A stretch of DNA of 64,000 nt from Thermoproteota archaeon. GTDB lineage: Archaea; Thermoproteota; Methanomethylicia; Methanomethylicales; Methanomethylicaceae. Of this stretch, positions 1-43,834 are shown in pieces. The translations under genes were made by a program, and so were the position numbers. Under the pieces are notes generated by a model. It searched no databases. It was not told the DNA's origin and saw only the letters and a program-made list of their open reading frames with translations. Location of the stretch: positions 474,903-538,902 of the forward strand of contig JAJHRG010000001.1 of the NCBI GenBank assembly GCA_020832905.1, given 5' to 3'. How positions within the stretch are numbered: the stretch's first letter is position 1; every line of letters begins with the position of its first letter.

Positions 1-592
1 TAATATTAAAATTTGGTCTAATTTTCTTTATAATTTTCTCAAATACATCAATTATTCTTTCAATTAACTTTTTGTATTTTTTTATTGCATATAATGCTAA
101 TATTAATGATGAAATAATTATAATAGAAATTGTAATTAGAAATAATGCTAATAATAAATTATAATTAATAAGCTTTAATCCACATAATATTATTATAACT
201 CCAAATGTTAATGTTAACATAATTCTATGTAAAATAACAGATGTAGTTGCTTTACCTAATCCTATATTAGCTTTTCTTGCTGTAAGATTAATTCTTACTA
301 CTTCTCCAGAAATAGAAGCTGTAGGTATCATTAAGTCACAGAAGATACTTATTAAAACAATTTCAAAACAATCTCTGAATTTTATACTAGGATTTCCTAA
401 AAATAAATACCAACTTAATGTAAATAATCCAATACATATAATATCAATTAATAATAGTAAAAATAAAGTAGTTTTATCAGCAATAATAATTTCATTAACT
501 AGAGTTTTTAATCCTATGAATTGTAAGTAAATTATGAATATTATTATTCCAATTATTAGCATTAAATTAGTAATACTTATTGGTAGCTTCAT
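1..592 (-). CDS. Polytopic membrane protein, N-terminal part (gene runs off the left edge); UPF0104 'flippase-like' family suspected
   Basis: Absent from the ORF track because no stop lies inside the window. My translation of the minus strand from ATG (592-590) gives MKLPISITNLMLIIGIIIFIIYLQFIGLK...FCDLMIPTASISGEVVRINLTARKANIGLGKATTSVILHRIM... The frame stays open to position 1 and has several hydrophobic helices. The P-x-GE-x2-R loop resembles UPF0104 proteins (recalled, not searched). Confidence 0.45.
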   Translation of the reverse strand, partial: MKLPISITNLMLIIGIIIFIIYLQFIGLKTLVNEIIIADKTTLFLLLLIDIICIGLFTLSWYLFLGNPSIKFRDCFEIVLISIFCDLMIPTASISGEVVRINLTARKANIGLGKATTSVILHRIMLTLTFGVIIILCGLKLINYNLLLALFLITISIIIISSLILALYAIKKYKKLIERIIDVFEKIIKKIRPNFNI

Positions 593-38961: not shown

Positions 38962-40044
38962 GTGTATTATACAGGATCTGCATATTTACCATTACATTCA
39001 GGTCATGTTCCTAATTGGTTAATTGAGCGTATGGAGGCTTTAGCTCGAAATATTACTACTATAATTATTAATGAATATGGAAGAAAAGAATTTCTAAGAA
39101 GAATTTCTAATCCATATTGGTTTCAAGCATTTGGATGTGTTTTAGGATTTGATTGGCATTCTTCTGGATTAACTACTGTTGTTACAGGCATTCTTAAATC
39201 TAGTATAAGTTATGAAGAAACTGGTATTGCTATTTGTGGAGGTAAAGGAATAAAATCTAGATCTACACCTGAAGAAATTACTACTATTGGAGAGAAATTA
39301 GGATTATCTACATCAAGAATCTCTAAATTAATATATGCAAGTAAGATGTGTGCAAAAGTAGATAATACAGCAATTCAAGCAGGATATCAGCTTTATCATC
39401 ATGTTTTTATTCTTTCTGAAGATGGAGAATGGGCTATTGTACAACAAGGTATGAATTTAAAAAATAAACTTGCAAGAAGATATCATTGGTTATCAGAAAA
39501 TCTTAATAGTTTTGTAGTAGAACCACATAAAGGAATTATAGGCTATAAAGAAGATAAAGTATTAAATATGATAGCAAAAGAATCTGAAGGTTGTAGAAAA
39601 GTATCAGTAGATATTGTTAAAGATAAATCATTAAGAAAATATATTGTTGAAGTAAAATCAGGTCAAAAATCTCTATTAGAATATATTAATAATAATATTT
39701 TAGTAATGCCATGGCATATAAATTGGAAAGCTTTAGAGAAAGCTTATGAAATTCAACCAAAAAATTATGAAGAGTTATTAGCAATTGAAGGTATTGGTCC
39801 AGCTACTATAAGAGCTCTTGCTTTAGTATCTGATATAATCTATGGAGAACCTCCAAGTTGGAAAGATCCTGTAAAATATTCTTTTGCCTTTGGAGGTAAA
39901 GATGGTGTTCCATTTCCAATACTAAGAAAAGAAATGGATGAAGCCATAGAATTCTTAAGAATTGCAATAGAACAAGCTAAAATTAATGAAAAAGAAAAAC
40001 TTAATGCTCTTAAACGACTAAGATCTATTTTAAAAGATAAATAG
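38962..40044 (+). CDS. Conserved hypothetical protein, DUF763/COG1415-like (tentative)
   Basis: 360 aa, GTG start. 'LPLHSGHVPNWLIERM' and 'FDWHSSGLTTV' resemble DUF763 as I recall it. It contains an HhH-like 'IEGIGPATIRALAL'. Confidence 0.5.
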   Translation: MYYTGSAYLPLHSGHVPNWLIERMEALARNITTIIINEYGRKEFLRRISNPYWFQAFGCVLGFDWHSSGLTTVVTGILKSSISYEETGIAICGGKGIKSRSTPEEITTIGEKLGLSTSRISKLIYASKMCAKVDNTAIQAGYQLYHHVFILSEDGEWAIVQQGMNLKNKLARRYHWLSENLNSFVVEPHKGIIGYKEDKVLNMIAKESEGCRKVSVDIVKDKSLRKYIVEVKSGQKSLLEYINNNILVMPWHINWKALEKAYEIQPKNYEELLAIEGIGPATIRALALVSDIIYGEPPSWKDPVKYSFAFGGKDGVPFPILRKEMDEAIEFLRIAIEQAKINEKEKLNALKRLRSILKDK

Positions 40045-40140
40045 ATAAAAAATCTTATCCAGTAGGTTTAAATATAACTTTTCTAAATTACATCACTTAC
40101 GGAGGGAAAGTAGTGAAGGAGGTAGCTTCTCAGCAAAAAG

Positions 40141-40476
40141 GTGTCTATCTTTTCAAGTACTAAAAGTACAATTGATCCCTCCAAGATATTAGAAGACTCA
40201 TTAAAGAAAATTTGTTCTAGAGTTTTAACAAATCTACAAAAAAAGATATTATTGTATATTATGAAAGATAAGGAAGAAGAAATAACTCTTTCTAGACAAG
40301 CAAGAGAAATTGCAAAAAAGCTCAATATTCCAGAATCTACAGTAAAATGGAATCTTAGAGTTCTTAGAGATTTAGGTCTTATAGAATGTGGAAGTATGAA
40401 TAATAAGGGTATTCCCATTAGATTAACATATGCTGGTTTAATTATAGCAAATAGTATAAAAGAGGAGATAAAATGA
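40141..40476 (+). CDS. Winged-helix (ArsR/MarR-like) transcription regulator
   Basis: 'LQKKILLYIMKDKEEEITLSRQAREIAKKLNIPESTVKWNLRVLRDLGLIE' is a typical wHTH. The 5' end is uncertain (see finding). The antisense ORF 40083-40418 is rejected. Confidence 0.6.
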   Translation: MSIFSSTKSTIDPSKILEDSLKKICSRVLTNLQKKILLYIMKDKEEEITLSRQAREIAKKLNIPESTVKWNLRVLRDLGLIECGSMNNKGIPIRLTYAGLIIANSIKEEIK

Positions 40477-40640
40477 GTATAATAATATTCATAATATTAC
40501 TTTCTTTATGTTTTATATTAGTTCCAATAATTGCAGTAACAATTGGTGGATGGTATGCATACTGGGGTGCTTTAATAATTAGCATTATATGGACTATAAT
40601 ATTATTGATTTTAAGAATTAAATATTGGGAGGAAGAATAA
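40473..40640 (+). CDS. Small two-helix membrane protein (55 aa) preceding the symporter, not in ORF track
   Basis: My translation is MSIIIFIILLSLCFILVPIIAVTIGGWYAYWGALIISIIWTIILLILRIKYWEEE. It has an AGAGGAG Shine-Dalgarno, an ATGA overlap with the regulator stop, and its TAA overlaps the symporter ATG (TAATG). Confidence 0.45.
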   Translation: MSIIIFIILLSLCFILVPIIAVTIGGWYAYWGALIISIIWTIILLILRIKYWEEE

Positions 40641-42181
40641 TGATACCTACACCAACACAAGAAACAGCAATTTCAACAATTATAGCAGTATTATCAATGT
40701 TAGCTATTAGTACTATAATTGGAGTATTATTTTATAGAAAATCAAAAAATTTTGATGAATGGCTTATTGGTCATAGAGATCTTGGCCCTATTACTACTGG
40801 TTTAGCTCTTACAGCAACATGGATGAGTGGTTGGGCAATATTTGGAAATGCTGGTCTTGGTTATACTTATGGCTGGTCTGGCTCATGGCTTATTGGTATT
40901 ACAAATTTAATGGGATTATCTTTATGTGTTGTTATTGGATATAGAATGCGACATTATGTTTCACTTGGAGCAAGAACAGTTCCTGAAGTTGTTAGAGTAA
41001 GATTTGATAGTAAGTTATTACAGATTCTTACTGGTATAACAATGATACTTTTATTAATTGTATATAGTGTTGGTCAATATAAGGCAATGGCTTCTGTTTG
41101 GTGTCTTACTACTGGAAGTGATTGGCTATTAAGTTTAACATTTACTGCAATATTATGTGGTATATATTTAGCTCTTGGTGGTTATACTGGTACACAATTT
41201 TCATTAGCATTACAAGGTTTAATCTTTATGATAATTGGATGGATATTTGGAATAGCTTCTATTATATGGGCAGGTGGTCCTGAAAAAATTGCAGAATGTC
41301 TATTAAATGCAAATTATGTAGCACCAGGAGGTAGAATAACATCAATACCTTTAAGTGGTTATACTGCAGCTATTACTCCAGCTTTTGCTGCATATGATTG
41401 GATTGGAGTTACAGGTGTATTATTTATGTTCTTACTTATGGCAACAGGTTTTCCACATAATATTGCTAGATTCTTAGGTATGAGGAAAGTAACAAAAAGA
41501 GAATTCATCATACTAATGATAATTGTTATACTAAATTGTATTACACCATTAATGATAGGCGTAATGGGATTTGCAGCAAGAACTGTTTGGGGAGCAGAAC
41601 TTATGAAGATAGCTCCAGTTTATGGTGATGCTGCTGCTACACTTGTAAGTATGGCAATTGGAGGTCCTTTAGGTGCAGGAGTATTCTCTATGGCAGTATT
41701 TGCTGCTGCAATTTCAACATTAGCAGGTATGGTAATGATAATGGCAACAAATATTACAAAAGATATTATTAGTAATATTGTACCAAATATTAAGCCTAAT
41801 ATACTTCTTATAATTTCAAGAATTTCTATAATTCCATTAATGTTAATTCCTCTATGGTGGACTTATACATCACCTCCACCTTTATTATCAGAATTTATGG
41901 CAGGATCTGCAGTAGCTCAAGCAGGAATATTCTTTTTTGTTGTAGCAATTTCTATGTATTGGAAAAGAGCTACAAAAATTGGAGCTATATGTACTATAAT
42001 TTATGGTATAATTCTTACATTATTACATCCTTCAGTTTATGGTAAATATATTCCACCATTTAATCATTGGGGTATTTGGGCATTAACATTAATGTTTGGT
42101 TGTGGAGTAGTATACTTTACAGTAAGCTTATTTACAAGACCACTACCAAAAGAAAAACTTGATACTATTTTTCCAAAATAA
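40640..42181 (+). CDS. Sodium:solute symporter family (SSF) transporter, copy 1
   Basis: About 513 aa and polytopic. 'GHRDLGPITTGLALTATWMSGWAIFGNAGLGY' is typical of the SSF N-terminal region. ATG 40640 follows a GGGAGG Shine-Dalgarno, so the track TTG 40625 is rejected. Confidence 0.85.
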   Translation: MIPTPTQETAISTIIAVLSMLAISTIIGVLFYRKSKNFDEWLIGHRDLGPITTGLALTATWMSGWAIFGNAGLGYTYGWSGSWLIGITNLMGLSLCVVIGYRMRHYVSLGARTVPEVVRVRFDSKLLQILTGITMILLLIVYSVGQYKAMASVWCLTTGSDWLLSLTFTAILCGIYLALGGYTGTQFSLALQGLIFMIIGWIFGIASIIWAGGPEKIAECLLNANYVAPGGRITSIPLSGYTAAITPAFAAYDWIGVTGVLFMFLLMATGFPHNIARFLGMRKVTKREFIILMIIVILNCITPLMIGVMGFAARTVWGAELMKIAPVYGDAAATLVSMAIGGPLGAGVFSMAVFAAAISTLAGMVMIMATNITKDIISNIVPNIKPNILLIISRISIIPLMLIPLWWTYTSPPPLLSEFMAGSAVAQAGIFFFVVAISMYWKRATKIGAICTIIYGIILTLLHPSVYGKYIPPFNHWGIWALTLMFGCGVVYFTVSLFTRPLPKEKLDTIFPK

Positions 42182-42194
42182 TTTTTTATTTTTT
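42182..42194 (+). terminator. Oligo-T tract (archaeal-type terminator candidate)
   Basis: 'TTTTTTATTTTTT' immediately follows the symporter TAA. Confidence 0.35.
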
Positions 42195-42234
42195 AGAAAA
42201 ATTTAAATATTAGCTTTTATTGAATTCTAGTTCA

Positions 42235-42365
42235 CTGGAGGAGTCTAGGTGAGCTGGAGGAGTTTAGTTTATTGAAAATACTTCTGTAATTCCTCCAGCT
42301 ATTACTGTCTTTAATTCAATTAACGGGGGTGAATTCTTTGCAAATAAGTGAAAGGAGGAGTCTAG
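42235..42365 (+). repeat. Three copies of a GGAGGAGTYTAG box in the ligase leader
   Basis: CTGGAGGAGTCTAG (42235-42248), CTGGAGGAGTTTAG (42254-42267) and GGAGGAGTCTAG (42354-42365). 'TGAATTCT' also occurs twice (42221-42228 and 42330-42337). Confidence 0.6.
42252..42300 (+). promoter_or_regulatory. Hairpin pairing a GGAGGA box with an anti-Shine-Dalgarno-like TCCTCC element
   Basis: AGCTGGAGGAGT (42252-42263) is complementary to ATTCCTCCAGCT (42289-42300), giving 12 bp with one G-U and a 25-nt loop. The TCCTCC arm could pair alternatively with any of the three GGAGGA boxes. Confidence 0.45.
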
Positions 42366-42452
42366 TTTACAACAAGTGAAGTCTATTTCCAACCAAGTCT
42401 AGAAAAAATAGATCCAGTACTTCTTAAGAAAATTCAAAATAAGAAATTAATA

Positions 42453-43661
42453 ATGGCATTTAATAGAGCAAAAAGAGTTCCTTTTATAAGAGAAAAATTA
42501 AAGCAAATGAAAATAGATTCAATAAATGGTATTGAGGACTTAAAGAAACTTCCATTTACAACAAAGAAGGATCTTATTGAATGTTTTCCATATGGTGCTT
42601 TAGCAGTACCATTAAGAAAAGTTCTAAGAATTCATACATCATCTGGTACAACAAATAAACCTATTCCTACATTTTATACAAAAAGGGATTTAAAAATATG
42701 GTCTGAATTAATGGCAAGAGCATTTGCTTGTGTAGGTGCAAGAAAAGGTGATATATTCCAAAATACTACTTCACAAGGGTTATTTACAGGAGGATTAGGT
42801 TTAATTCAAGGAGCTGAAAGATTTGGTATAACAGTAATTCCTTTTGGTTCTGGTAATCCAGAAAAACAACTTGAAATAATGAGAGATTTTGGAGTTACTA
42901 TATTCCATGCTATTCCATCATTTGCATTACGCTTTATAGAAGTTTTAGAAAATCGTGAAGATCTTAGAAAATCTCTTAAGCTAAGAATAGGCATATTAGG
43001 AGCAGAACCATGGACAAAAGAAACAAGAAATAAAATAGAAGAAGGTCTTGGAATAGAAGCATTTAATAATTATGGTATGGCTGAACTTACAGGTCCTGGG
43101 GTTGCAATTGAATGTAGAGCTAAAAATGGACTTCATGTATGGGAGGATCATTTCATAGCTGAAATTATAGATCCAAAGACTGGAGAAAATGTTGATATAG
43201 AAGAAGAAGGTGAATTAGTAATAACACCTCTATCAAGAGAAGCAATGCCTTTAATTCGCTATAGAACAGGTGATATTACAAGATTTATTGAAGGTCCTTG
43301 TGAATGTGGAAGAACACATATAAAAATAGATTGGATTAAGGGGAGAATTGATGATATGATTAAAATTAGAGGAATAGGTCTATATCCATCTACTATAGAG
43401 AAAATAATTGCATCTCATAAAGAAACAAATGGTAACTTTCTTATTGTCTTATCTGGTATTGATGATATAATAGTTAAGGTAGAAGTTAATAATAGTATAA
43501 TTAATAATGCTACATTAGTTGAAAAATTAAAACAAGAAATATTTGAAGAAATAAAAAATGCTACACAATTAAGAACAATTGTAGAAATAGTTCCATCAGG
43601 TACTTTACCAAGAAGTGATGGAAAAACAAAAAGAGTATTAGACTTAAGGAGGTTGATTTAG
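42453..43661 (+). CDS. Phenylacetate-CoA ligase / coenzyme F390 synthetase family (PaaK-like adenylate-forming enzyme)
   Basis: 'LKKLPFTTKKDL', 'RIHTSSGTTNKP', 'GLFTGGLG', 'YGMAELTGPG', 'WEDHF' and 'RYRTGD'. Coordinates are those of the ATG-bounded ORF. PaaK-like coding sequence continues upstream to about 42384 in the same frame without a canonical start (see finding). Confidence 0.85.
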   Translation: MAFNRAKRVPFIREKLKQMKIDSINGIEDLKKLPFTTKKDLIECFPYGALAVPLRKVLRIHTSSGTTNKPIPTFYTKRDLKIWSELMARAFACVGARKGDIFQNTTSQGLFTGGLGLIQGAERFGITVIPFGSGNPEKQLEIMRDFGVTIFHAIPSFALRFIEVLENREDLRKSLKLRIGILGAEPWTKETRNKIEEGLGIEAFNNYGMAELTGPGVAIECRAKNGLHVWEDHFIAEIIDPKTGENVDIEEEGELVITPLSREAMPLIRYRTGDITRFIEGPCECGRTHIKIDWIKGRIDDMIKIRGIGLYPSTIEKIIASHKETNGNFLIVLSGIDDIIVKVEVNNSIINNATLVEKLKQEIFEEIKNATQLRTIVEIVPSGTLPRSDGKTKRVLDLRRLI

Positions 43662-43832
43662 ATGTTTTCTATATTAATTACTAAGTTAGCTATAAAAATA
43701 ATATCAAGTAGTGATAGAATCTTAGGAATGCTTCCAATAACATTTGTTTGCTTAATTATTCCCATTATAGTTCAGATATTAATACTAACATTATGGGCAC
43801 TTAAGTGGAAATCACCAGAAAAGGAGGGTTAA
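43662..43832 (+). CDS. Small membrane protein (56 aa) preceding second symporter, not in ORF track
   Basis: My translation is MFSILITKLAIKIISSSDRILGMLPITFVCLIIPIIVQILILTLWALKWKSPEKEG. The ATG directly follows the ligase TAG, and the stop lies 2 nt before the symporter ATG. Confidence 0.45.
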   Translation: MFSILITKLAIKIISSSDRILGMLPITFVCLIIPIIVQILILTLWALKWKSPEKEG

Positions 43833-43834
43833 AA

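Follow-up and report, generated by a model that had tools for sequence, protein, structure and literature searches.

The spacer in front of a gene for a PaaK-like aryl-acid coenzyme A (CoA) ligase was analysed in a 64,000-nt stretch of a Methanomethylicia genome (Thermoproteota archaeon, assembly GCA_020832905.1, contig JAJHRG010000001.1, positions 474,903 to 538,902 of the forward strand), which is called the window here and numbered from its first letter. We propose, with a little over even confidence, that the leader of this ligase operon acts in translation, through two successive programmed +1 frameshifts resembling the one in bacterial prfB. A first-pass annotation of the window had described 42182-42452 as a leader with regulatory function, either a riboswitch-like RNA or an operator array. 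That the region is a cis-acting control region of the ligase gene and those downstream is borne out by its conservation, as a search for homologous leaders found the same leader before the orthologous PaaK-like ligase in 24 loci. What is conserved are features of reading frames, namely start codons, stops, open frames and a Tyr codon that does not vary, and on sequence comparison they point to translated upstream open reading frames (uORFs) and recoding instead of a ligand-binding RNA or an array of DNA operators.

The comparison set comprised 24 distinct orthologous ligase loci of Methanomethylicia (Verstraetearchaeota) with 58-93% protein identity, taken from genome and metagenome collections and from contigs encoding database homologues of the ligase. 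The leader alignments and most per-locus counts were made on 22 leaders, and two further loci, L174 and L176, raise the total to 24. For the cassette pattern described below about 140 loci served as an outgroup comparison; the outgroup ligases L166, L173 and L175 lie outside the leader-bearing set. The architecture of the leader was kept over the 24 loci, down to 58% protein identity. Contigs of four independent hot-spring metagenome runs were identical in the boxes, the hairpin arms, both uORFs, both cassettes and the TAG at 42363-65, and differed in single bases at three positions only, 42288 (at the edge of the 3' hairpin arm), 42315 and 42386. As all functional elements were unchanged in the four independent runs, the TAG at 42363-65 is not a sequencing error.

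The ligase reading frame and its missing start codon

The gene under study is the following feature:

42366..43661 (+): PaaK-like aryl-acid CoA ligase frame, 431 codons plus stop, with Pfam AMP-binding and AMP-binding_C_2 matches.

By these two domains the product is a PaaK-like ligase, with scores below the equivalog cut-offs (TIGR02155, 403.9 bits against 646.3; NF041878, 393.4 against 700). Its frame is open from 42366, immediately 3' of the TAG at 42363-65, and the first canonical in-frame start in the window is ATG 42453, at codon 30. The first-pass annotation had assumed this ATG to be the ligase start and the third of its boxes to be the Shine-Dalgarno (SD) sequence in front of the gene, and neither assumption held. 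ATG 42453 lies 29 codons inside the conserved protein, and box 3 is not a normal ribosome-binding site, as it is followed by no start codon and a TAG stands where the homologues start. The supposed 270-nt extent of the leader has to be shortened too, because the 87 nt at its end (42366-42452) belong to the ligase, as its 29 conserved N-terminal codons. Full-length homologues such as P0003 (MFTTPENYFQPNLEKIN...) have N-termini with which these codons (FTTSEVYFQPSLEKIDPVLLKKIQNKKLI) align, and the PaaK profile alignments begin at residue 13-20, that is, upstream of ATG 42453. Compared with L001, the ligase frame has 8 synonymous and 5 non-synonymous codon differences over this stretch, while the other two frames gave 1:13 and 1:11. 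Since the homologue alignment and the PaaK profile both cover the 29 codons and the synonymous bias is found in the ligase frame only, they are taken to be translated, and by these counts they are under purifying selection.

In all loci the ligase frame starts as ...GGAGG(A/G)GTY NNN TTT AYN, where the codon before TTT is TAG, GCG, GCC, GCT, GTC, GTG etc. In 14 of the 24 loci the stretch from the in-frame stop upstream to the conserved N-terminus contains no ATG, GTG or TTG, and TAG stands directly before the N-terminus in the window, L001, L002 and L091. The closest relatives, L001 and L002 (93% identity), have TAG at the junction and TAA just upstream of it, and possess no counterpart of ATG 42453. 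Most database homologues are annotated 15-45 residues too short at the N-terminus, a mis-annotation that arises because no start codon serves the conserved N-terminus.

The ligase gene could instead be truncated or decaying, with its start at ATG 42453, or at GTG 42348 with readthrough of TAG 42363 (by pyrrolysine, for example), and with the boxes as remnants of duplication. ATG 42453 is indeed the first canonical start, GTG 42348 is in frame upstream of the TAG, and boxes 2 and 3 are clearly duplicates. However, the 29 codons that such a reading would discard are under purifying selection and fall within the PaaK profile, L001 and L002 are without that ATG, their TAA directly before GGA GGA GTT TAG leaves no start for readthrough, and decay does not agree with an architecture conserved over 24 loci to 58% protein identity. 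We find this explanation hardly credible. Decoding of the TAG as pyrrolysine or by readthrough was also rejected in its own right, from the TAA before a box without start in L001 and L002 and from the lack of TAG at this place in most loci.

The upstream reading frames and the proposed shift cassettes

The elements between the promoter and the ligase that are proposed to act in translation are, in order:

42235..42248 (+): box 1, CTGGAGGAGTCTAG, the SD of uORF1; GGAGG core at 42237-41, 7 nt before GTG 42249.
42249..42275 (+): uORF1, GTG AGC TGG AGG AGT TTA GTT TAT TGA (MSWRSLVY, stop); start, SD and peptide end common to 22 loci.
42256..42272 (+): cassette A, GGAGG-N6-GUU-UAU, recognised by motif conservation; it joins box 2 to the proposed shift site GUU_U (42267-70), where the Tyr codon UAU would occupy the A site.
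42268..42351 (+): ORF-X, the +1 open reading frame (ORF) after cassette A, 27 codons (FIENTSVIPPAITVFNSINGGEFFANK, stop), closed by TGA 42349-51 inside uORF2.
42325..42332 (+): second SD, GGGGGTGA, for uORF2; core 8 nt before TTG 42338.
42338..42379 (+): uORF2, TTG CAA ATA AGT GAA AGG AGG AGT CTA GTT TAC AAC AAG TGA (MQISERRSLVYNK, stop); conserved in start, stop and frame.
42354..42370 (+): cassette B, box 3 GGAGGAGTCTAG plus GUU_UAC; P-site GUU 42365-67, skipped T 42368, A-site UAC 42368-70.

The distance from SD to start in genes of the window is 7-8 nt, and the spacing of both uORFs matches it. CTGGAGG of box 1 is invariant in 21 of the 22 leaders, and uORF1 starts 6-7 nt after box 1, with GTG in 21/22 and TTG in L091. 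It is 8-17 codons long, its peptide ends in V, I, L or F followed by Y in every leader (22/22), and its stop comes directly after the Tyr codon in 17/22; the uORF1 pattern is likewise present in L174 and L176. The second SD reads GGAGGTG or GAGGTG in relatives and lies 5-8 nt before the uORF2 start in all loci. uORF2, whose peptide in the window is M-Q-I-S-E-R-R-S-L-V-Y-N-K-stop and which has about 13 codons across loci, starts with GTG, TTG or ATG; the start is placed 28 nt before the junction in 17/22 (GTG or TTG), with variants at -25, -22 and -19 and, in L084, at -34, the GTG having been moved to -27 by a deletion. uORF2 overlaps the start of the ligase frame, the ligase is in the +1 frame of uORF2 in all loci, and the uORF2 stop falls at junction +11..13 in 21/22. 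Column +11 is T in 21/22 despite being the third position of a hypervariable ligase codon, and therefore the uORF2 stop itself is under selection.

Box 2 lies inside uORF1 and box 3 inside uORF2, and each forms part of one and the same 17-nt pattern, GGAGG-N6-NUU-UAY, in which GGAGG (or variants such as GAAGG) stands 6 nt before NUU. In the form G(G/A)AGG-N7-TTTAY it stands at the site of cassette A in 17 and at that of cassette B in 18 of the 22 in-clade leaders, the SD core or the spacing being variant in L006 and L171 at cassette A and in L084, L161, L168 and L172 at cassette B; the motif occurred only about 8 times in the outgroup loci. The window itself holds 3 matches against 0.21 expected. 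The third match (49012-28, minus strand) consists of in-frame homoserine kinase codons (GGITFI) and was set aside as a chance match. At the junction T-T-T-A-(C/T) is invariant or nearly so over the 22 loci, and the Tyr codon of the uORF frame changes synonymously only, while residue 2 of the ligase varies among T, I and M. At cassette B the N of N-UUU is C or U, bases that allow good re-pairing, in 8/22 and G in 14/22; cassette A has A or G there, and these bases leave a mismatch at the first position. The TAG at 42363-65 closes the ligase frame directly upstream of the shift site of cassette B.

As judged from the alignments, cassette A with the start-less open frame behind it is an independent replicate of the signal at cassette B. 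ORF-X has no start codon in the window and a TAG immediately upstream, and across loci it is about 25 codons long. Its frame is free of stops up to the uORF2 start region in 21/22, whereas the other two frames are so in 2/22 and 0/22; the chance that this frame would be open in a given locus is 0.12-0.6. No in-frame start was found for it in 20/22, TAG lies immediately upstream of the frame in five loci, and at many of the loci the stop of ORF-X and the start of uORF2 share bases, as UAGUG or AUGA.

L084 offers a naturally fused form of the gene: a 1-nt deletion in uORF2 (2474-2503) puts the GTG in frame with the ligase. Fusion of frames by one nucleotide is the usual signature of a gene family that depends on frameshifting. 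An ATG is also present at codon -5 of this locus, and its uORF1, cassette A and ORF-X are intact.

In the proposed mechanism transcription would begin just upstream of box 1, and ribosomes would initiate uORF1 at GTG 42249 with box 1 as SD. Within uORF1 they would meet cassette A, that is, GGAGG, 6 nt, the slippery NUU_U and a Tyr codon UAY in the A site; most ribosomes would decode the Tyr codon and terminate one codon later, and those that have slipped by +1 would read the start-less ORF-X, passing through an anti-SD arm (described below) and the second SD, and would stop at or next to the uORF2 start, where they probably open or feed the initiation of uORF2. uORF2 (TTG 42338) carries cassette B exactly where the ligase frame opens, so placed that a second slip at GUU_U 42365-68 would fuse its 10-residue peptide to the ligase, and non-shifting ribosomes would terminate at TGA 42377-79. 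The predicted trans-frame N-terminus is MQISERRSLV joined to TTSEVYFQPSLEK... (MQISERRSLV followed by TTSEVYFQ...), and the predicted tryptic peptide spanning the junction is SLVTTSEVYFQPSLEK (or SLFTTSEVYFQPSLEK). The conserved uORFs and cassettes, the open frames and the absence of start codons are supported by comparative data, and from these we infer the frameshift itself, its exact site, the coupling via ORF-X and the sensing of Tyr that is discussed below. The alignments bound the position of the shift to 42365-42379, and it is put provisionally at GUU_U, there being no other slippery element that is conserved. A +1 slip would also relax the SD spacing, since the cassettes have 6 nt in place of the 7-8 nt of the genome and the slip gives 7 nt. 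Two other routes into the ligase frame were tried and rejected: a -1 shift from the third frame, for which the ATG found in L004 and L005 is unconserved and only 1 nt from its SD, and a strict prfB-style shift at the uORF2 stop, where the preceding codon is hypervariable and not slippery.

Several observations weigh against frameshifting. In ten of the 24 orthologues a canonical start lies in frame 1-9 codons upstream of the junction, and direct initiation may suffice there, or could coexist with shifting. Slips on GUU and AUU re-pair at 2/3 positions only, and the SD is spaced 6 nt from the shift codon, against 3 nt in E. coli prfB. The peptide sequence of ORF-X is unconserved, with only its openness kept. 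As of a 2021 review no +1 frameshift had been demonstrated in a cellular archaeal gene (PMC8211752), and our search for RNA runs with this leader sequence found none, the matches being contigs of DNA metagenomes only. Lastly, in both cassettes GGAGG lies exactly 7 nt before UUU, as it does before the starts of ordinary window genes, which is also how an initiation signal would look.

This last feature is the starting point of the main rival explanation, SD-tethered initiation or reinitiation, in which boxes 2 and 3 would hold a fresh or just-released 30S subunit with UUU in its P site, and ORF-X and the ligase would start non-canonically. The uORF stops are suitably near and at fixed positions, after the Tyr codon in uORF1 and at +11 in uORF2, and reinitiation of the calicivirus type, with tethering to rRNA, tolerates non-AUG codons. 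On the other side, UUU shares one base only with AUG, and we know of no archaeal or bacterial initiation at UUU. Tethering does not explain why the frame, the start codon and the Tyr codon of the uORFs are conserved, why a slippery N-UUU-AY has stayed invariant where a start codon could have evolved, or why the uORF2 start is fused in frame in L084. We consider this explanation unlikely.

A side observation concerns the origin of cassette B. The outgroup ligases L166, L173 and L175 have ordinary starts: in L175 (1180-1225) an SD is followed by TTG AAG GAA ATT GCA TTT TGG (MKEIAFW), which opens the ligase, and in L173 (277-320) the ligase begins ATGGAGGAGTTGCGCTTACAG. Both starts resemble cassette B in nucleotides, L173 reading the cassette-like stretch in the third frame. 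The comparison suggests that cassette B was derived from ancestral N-terminal coding sequence.

Putative promoter, RNA structure and the operator alternative

Three further features frame the translated elements:

42182..42194 (+): oligo-T tract TTTTTTATTTTTT, directly after the stop of the upstream SSS (solute:sodium symporter) gene.
42196..42209 (+): promoter element resembling a transcription factor B recognition element (BRE) and TATA box, GAAAAA-TTTAAATA, with an aligned box in relatives.
42288..42300 (+): anti-SD-like arm AATTCCTCCAGCT, which pairs with box 2 (42252-64, 13 bp) or with box 1 (CTGGAGGA/TCCTCCAG).

All sequence items listed in the first-pass annotation were recovered. The oligo-T tract at 42182-94 follows directly on the symporter stop TAA (42179-81); such tracts serve as archaeal transcription terminators, and this one is likely the termination signal of the upstream symporter. 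The three boxes are present as GGAGGAGTCTAG at 42237-48, GGAGGAGTTTAG at 42256-67 and GGAGGAGTCTAG again at 42354-65, where shuffled sequences gave 0.27 expected matches and 0 of 100 shuffles reached three. GGGGGTGA was likewise found at 42325-32. TGAATTCT does occur twice (42221-42228 and 42330-42337); it is not present in L001, L002 and L003, and as a repeat it is probably due to chance or lineage-specific. No ORF of at least 60 amino acids was found in the region. The raised GC content was also confirmed, at 0.295 for 42182-42452 and 0.315 for 42182-42365, the leader being the highest among the 18 window spacers of at least 80 nt (range 0.13-0.29; whole window 0.28).

All 22 orthologous leaders share an aligned box of (T/C)TTAAATA type. 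Between the TATA box's 3' end and box 1 the distance is 25 nt in the window and 25-27 nt in 9 of the 11 loci in which it was measured by regular expression, and the transcript is predicted to begin at about 42232-42236, only a few nt ahead of box 1.

The hairpin described by the first-pass annotation exists, with arms of 13 nt (42252-64 and 42288-300) that are 92% complementary and 23 nt apart. It is the main hairpin of the minimum free energy fold, with a duplex energy of -20.8 kcal/mol and z = -6.1 against shuffles of the segment between the uORFs. A CUCCAG-like element was found in relatives. The notion of SD-like boxes facing an anti-SD-like arm stood as regards the window, and in part beyond it: complementarity of the arm to box 1 or box 2 exceeds chance in about half of the leaders, the inter-uORF segment being above shuffles for box 1 in 11/22 loci and for box 2 in 8/22. 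Relatives show G.U-compatible variants of the arm, e.g. CUUCAG and CCUUCCAG with GAAGG boxes. The arm is probably part of the system, for instance by masking the SD-like boxes until a ribosome passes.

These structural features are what a switch built on RNA structure would have, be it a riboswitch, a thermosensor or a protein-binding leader, in which the CUCCAG arm alternately sequesters box 1, 2 or 3 and the uORFs are incidental; the 13-bp hairpin, the box 1 and box 2 complementarity above shuffles and the G.U-compatible variants all favour it. Against it, the Rfam scan of the window gave no match at gathering score and only chance-level matches in 42000-42700 (E at least 0.97), and RNAalifold predicted 0 pairs over the 22 orthologous leaders, with no consensus helix or covarying pair. 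Folding energies were ordinary (z = -1.16 for the window leader against shuffles, and around 0 for the inter-uORF segments), and no conserved helices of a terminator/antiterminator type were found in the 22 leaders. By the structure and family tests run, the leader is not a riboswitch, contrary to the riboswitch-like reading of the first-pass annotation. Moreover, the conserved signals are phased by codons, and a structure switch would still leave the ligase without a start codon. We regard it as very unlikely.

The boxes could also be read as DNA operators, direct repeats 19 and 98 bp apart, at which the winged-helix regulator encoded at 40141-40476 would bind and form a transcriptional roadblock downstream of the promoter. 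The gene of this regulator is in the same gene cluster, in several relatives a divergent gene of 146 amino acids resembling LexA_DNA_bind (a weak match, of winged-helix type) adjoins the leader, and the repeated 16-nt box is conserved. However, the boxes lie downstream of the predicted transcription start, they keep a fixed codon phase with starts, stops and open frames for which a DNA site has no need, and their core is the plain SD consensus of this genome. This possibility appears highly improbable to us.

Two further readings of the repeats were tried and rejected. An intron, or a bypass like that of T4 gene 60, from box 2 to box 3 fails because the 98-nt distance keeps the phase of the uORF and does not reach the ligase frame. 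A miniature inverted-repeat transposable element with a 12-nt target duplication (boxes 1 and 3) does not agree with an arrangement conserved in distant relatives and with no terminal inverted repeats.

Precedents, proposed amino-acid sensing and gene context

The shift codon of prfB is CUU_U, or UUU_U in a minority, and it is accompanied by an internal SD (PMC5009743). The archaeal leaders have in common with bacterial prfB a short initiated ORF, an internal SD-like stimulator upstream of NUU_U and a main protein that is start-less in the +1 frame; in both, some orthologues are frame-fused and non-shifted ribosomes end after a short peptide, as proposed here for the leader. Both the CUU_U and the UUU_U forms known from prfB occur among the archaeal leaders. 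Unlike prfB, where the A site holds a stop codon decoded by the product of prfB itself, the A site here holds a sense Tyr codon, the host is archaeal, the gene is for an unrelated PaaK-like ligase, and the cassette occurs twice in series, its first copy leading into a spacer frame only.

Recoding demonstrated in Archaea as of the 2021 review comprises selenocysteine, pyrrolysine and one -1 frameshift, that of fucA1, with +1 shifting merely suggested for a haloarchaeal virus and a frameshift of unspecified kind for magnesium chelatase (PMC8211752). In fucA1 of Saccharolobus solfataricus the -1 shift, at A-AAA-AAT, is accompanied by rare codons and a stem-loop, and two large portions of the enzyme are joined by it (PMC8211752). 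The ligase would resemble it as a cellular archaeal gene that is split into overlapping frames and joined by recoding, whereas its shift would be +1 and SD-stimulated, would fall right where the gene begins and would be conserved across a clade of class level. Neither this leader nor frameshifting in archaeal PaaK genes turned up in full-text literature searches. If the frameshifts are real, SD-stimulated +1 shifting exists in archaeal ribosomes and is conserved across the Methanomethylicia clade, and the 17-nt cassette is a portable one for tests. Gene callers would then be truncating the ligase in most genomes, which would affect the annotation of metagenome-assembled genomes and the inference of aryl-acid metabolism.

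The only invariant codon common to both uORFs is that for Tyr, one in each uORF, and scarcity of charged tRNA-Tyr would be expected to raise shifting, and with it to turn on an operon for aryl-acid uptake and activation or for aromatic amino acids. In L004 (5442-9291, JACTUC010000003.1) genes for a split transketolase, DAHP synthase and 3-dehydroquinate synthase come directly after the leader and ligase and are oriented like them. By these gene assignments the ligase of L004 is the first gene of a shikimate-pathway operon, with which aromatic amino-acid synthesis begins; this aromatic link was seen in L004 only. Two hungry-codon sites in series would make an amino-acid sensor whose expression rises with about the square of the shift frequency and whose output restores aromatic amino acids; we put this forward tentatively, with the chances somewhat against it. 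Two points tell against such sensing. The A-site codon is the sense Tyr codon UAY, not a stop, and is not intrinsically slow, so that slow decoding would need limitation of tRNA-Tyr; and what suggests that Tyr may be sensed is a single invariant codon together with the gene context of one relative.

As proposed here, the leader would be like hungry-codon shifts and the rare-tRNA sites of yeast Ty1 and Ty3, where a slowly filled A site lets the P-site tRNA slip, and like the +1 frameshift of antizyme in that the shift efficiency reflects a metabolic state and controls how strongly the downstream frame is expressed; in antizyme polyamines are sensed and the shift makes use of a stop codon, while sensing by the present leader is conjectural. 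Like the pheL and trpL attenuators, the leader peptides carry a codon for an amino acid that may be related to the operon; unlike them, each uORF has a single Tyr codon in place of a run, and there is no conserved terminator/antiterminator pair. In ermC, frameshifted ribosomes from the uORF open downstream structure (PMC5009743). The ligase leader is like that ketolide-induced leader in having a uORF from which out-of-frame ribosomes, by reading into the spacer, can allow downstream initiation, and unlike it no antibiotic is involved and the system is archaeal. No natural frameshift of the starvation (hungry-codon) type that makes a functional trans-frame protein is known (PMC5009743), and if the frameshifts are real the leader makes this question directly testable. 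If the sensor reading were true, it would provide three firsts: a programmed +1 frameshift in a cellular archaeal gene, a natural starvation-type frameshift yielding a functional protein, and amino-acid control of leader-peptide style in Archaea.

The gene context was also inspected. In the window the ligase is flanked by two solute:sodium symporters. Upstream of the leader the window (38962-42181) has genes for a DUF763 protein, a small winged-helix regulator (weak TK0271-family match) and the SSS symporter, an arrangement found also in L002, L003, L161, L174 and L176, while in other relatives the 146-residue gene with a weak LexA_DNA_bind match is found instead, divergent from the leader. 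Between the ligase and the second symporter an ORF of 56 amino acids (43662-43832, plus strand) has its start at the stop codon of the ligase; no family matched it, and ORFs of 52-55 amino acids occupy the same position in L163, L168 and L171. Its product may be a small membrane subunit of the symporter. The ORF list starts the two symporters at TTG or GTG (40625-40639 and 43805-43834), but ATG 40640 and ATG 43835 each lie 7 nt after a GGAGG and, from this placement, are more likely the true symporter starts.

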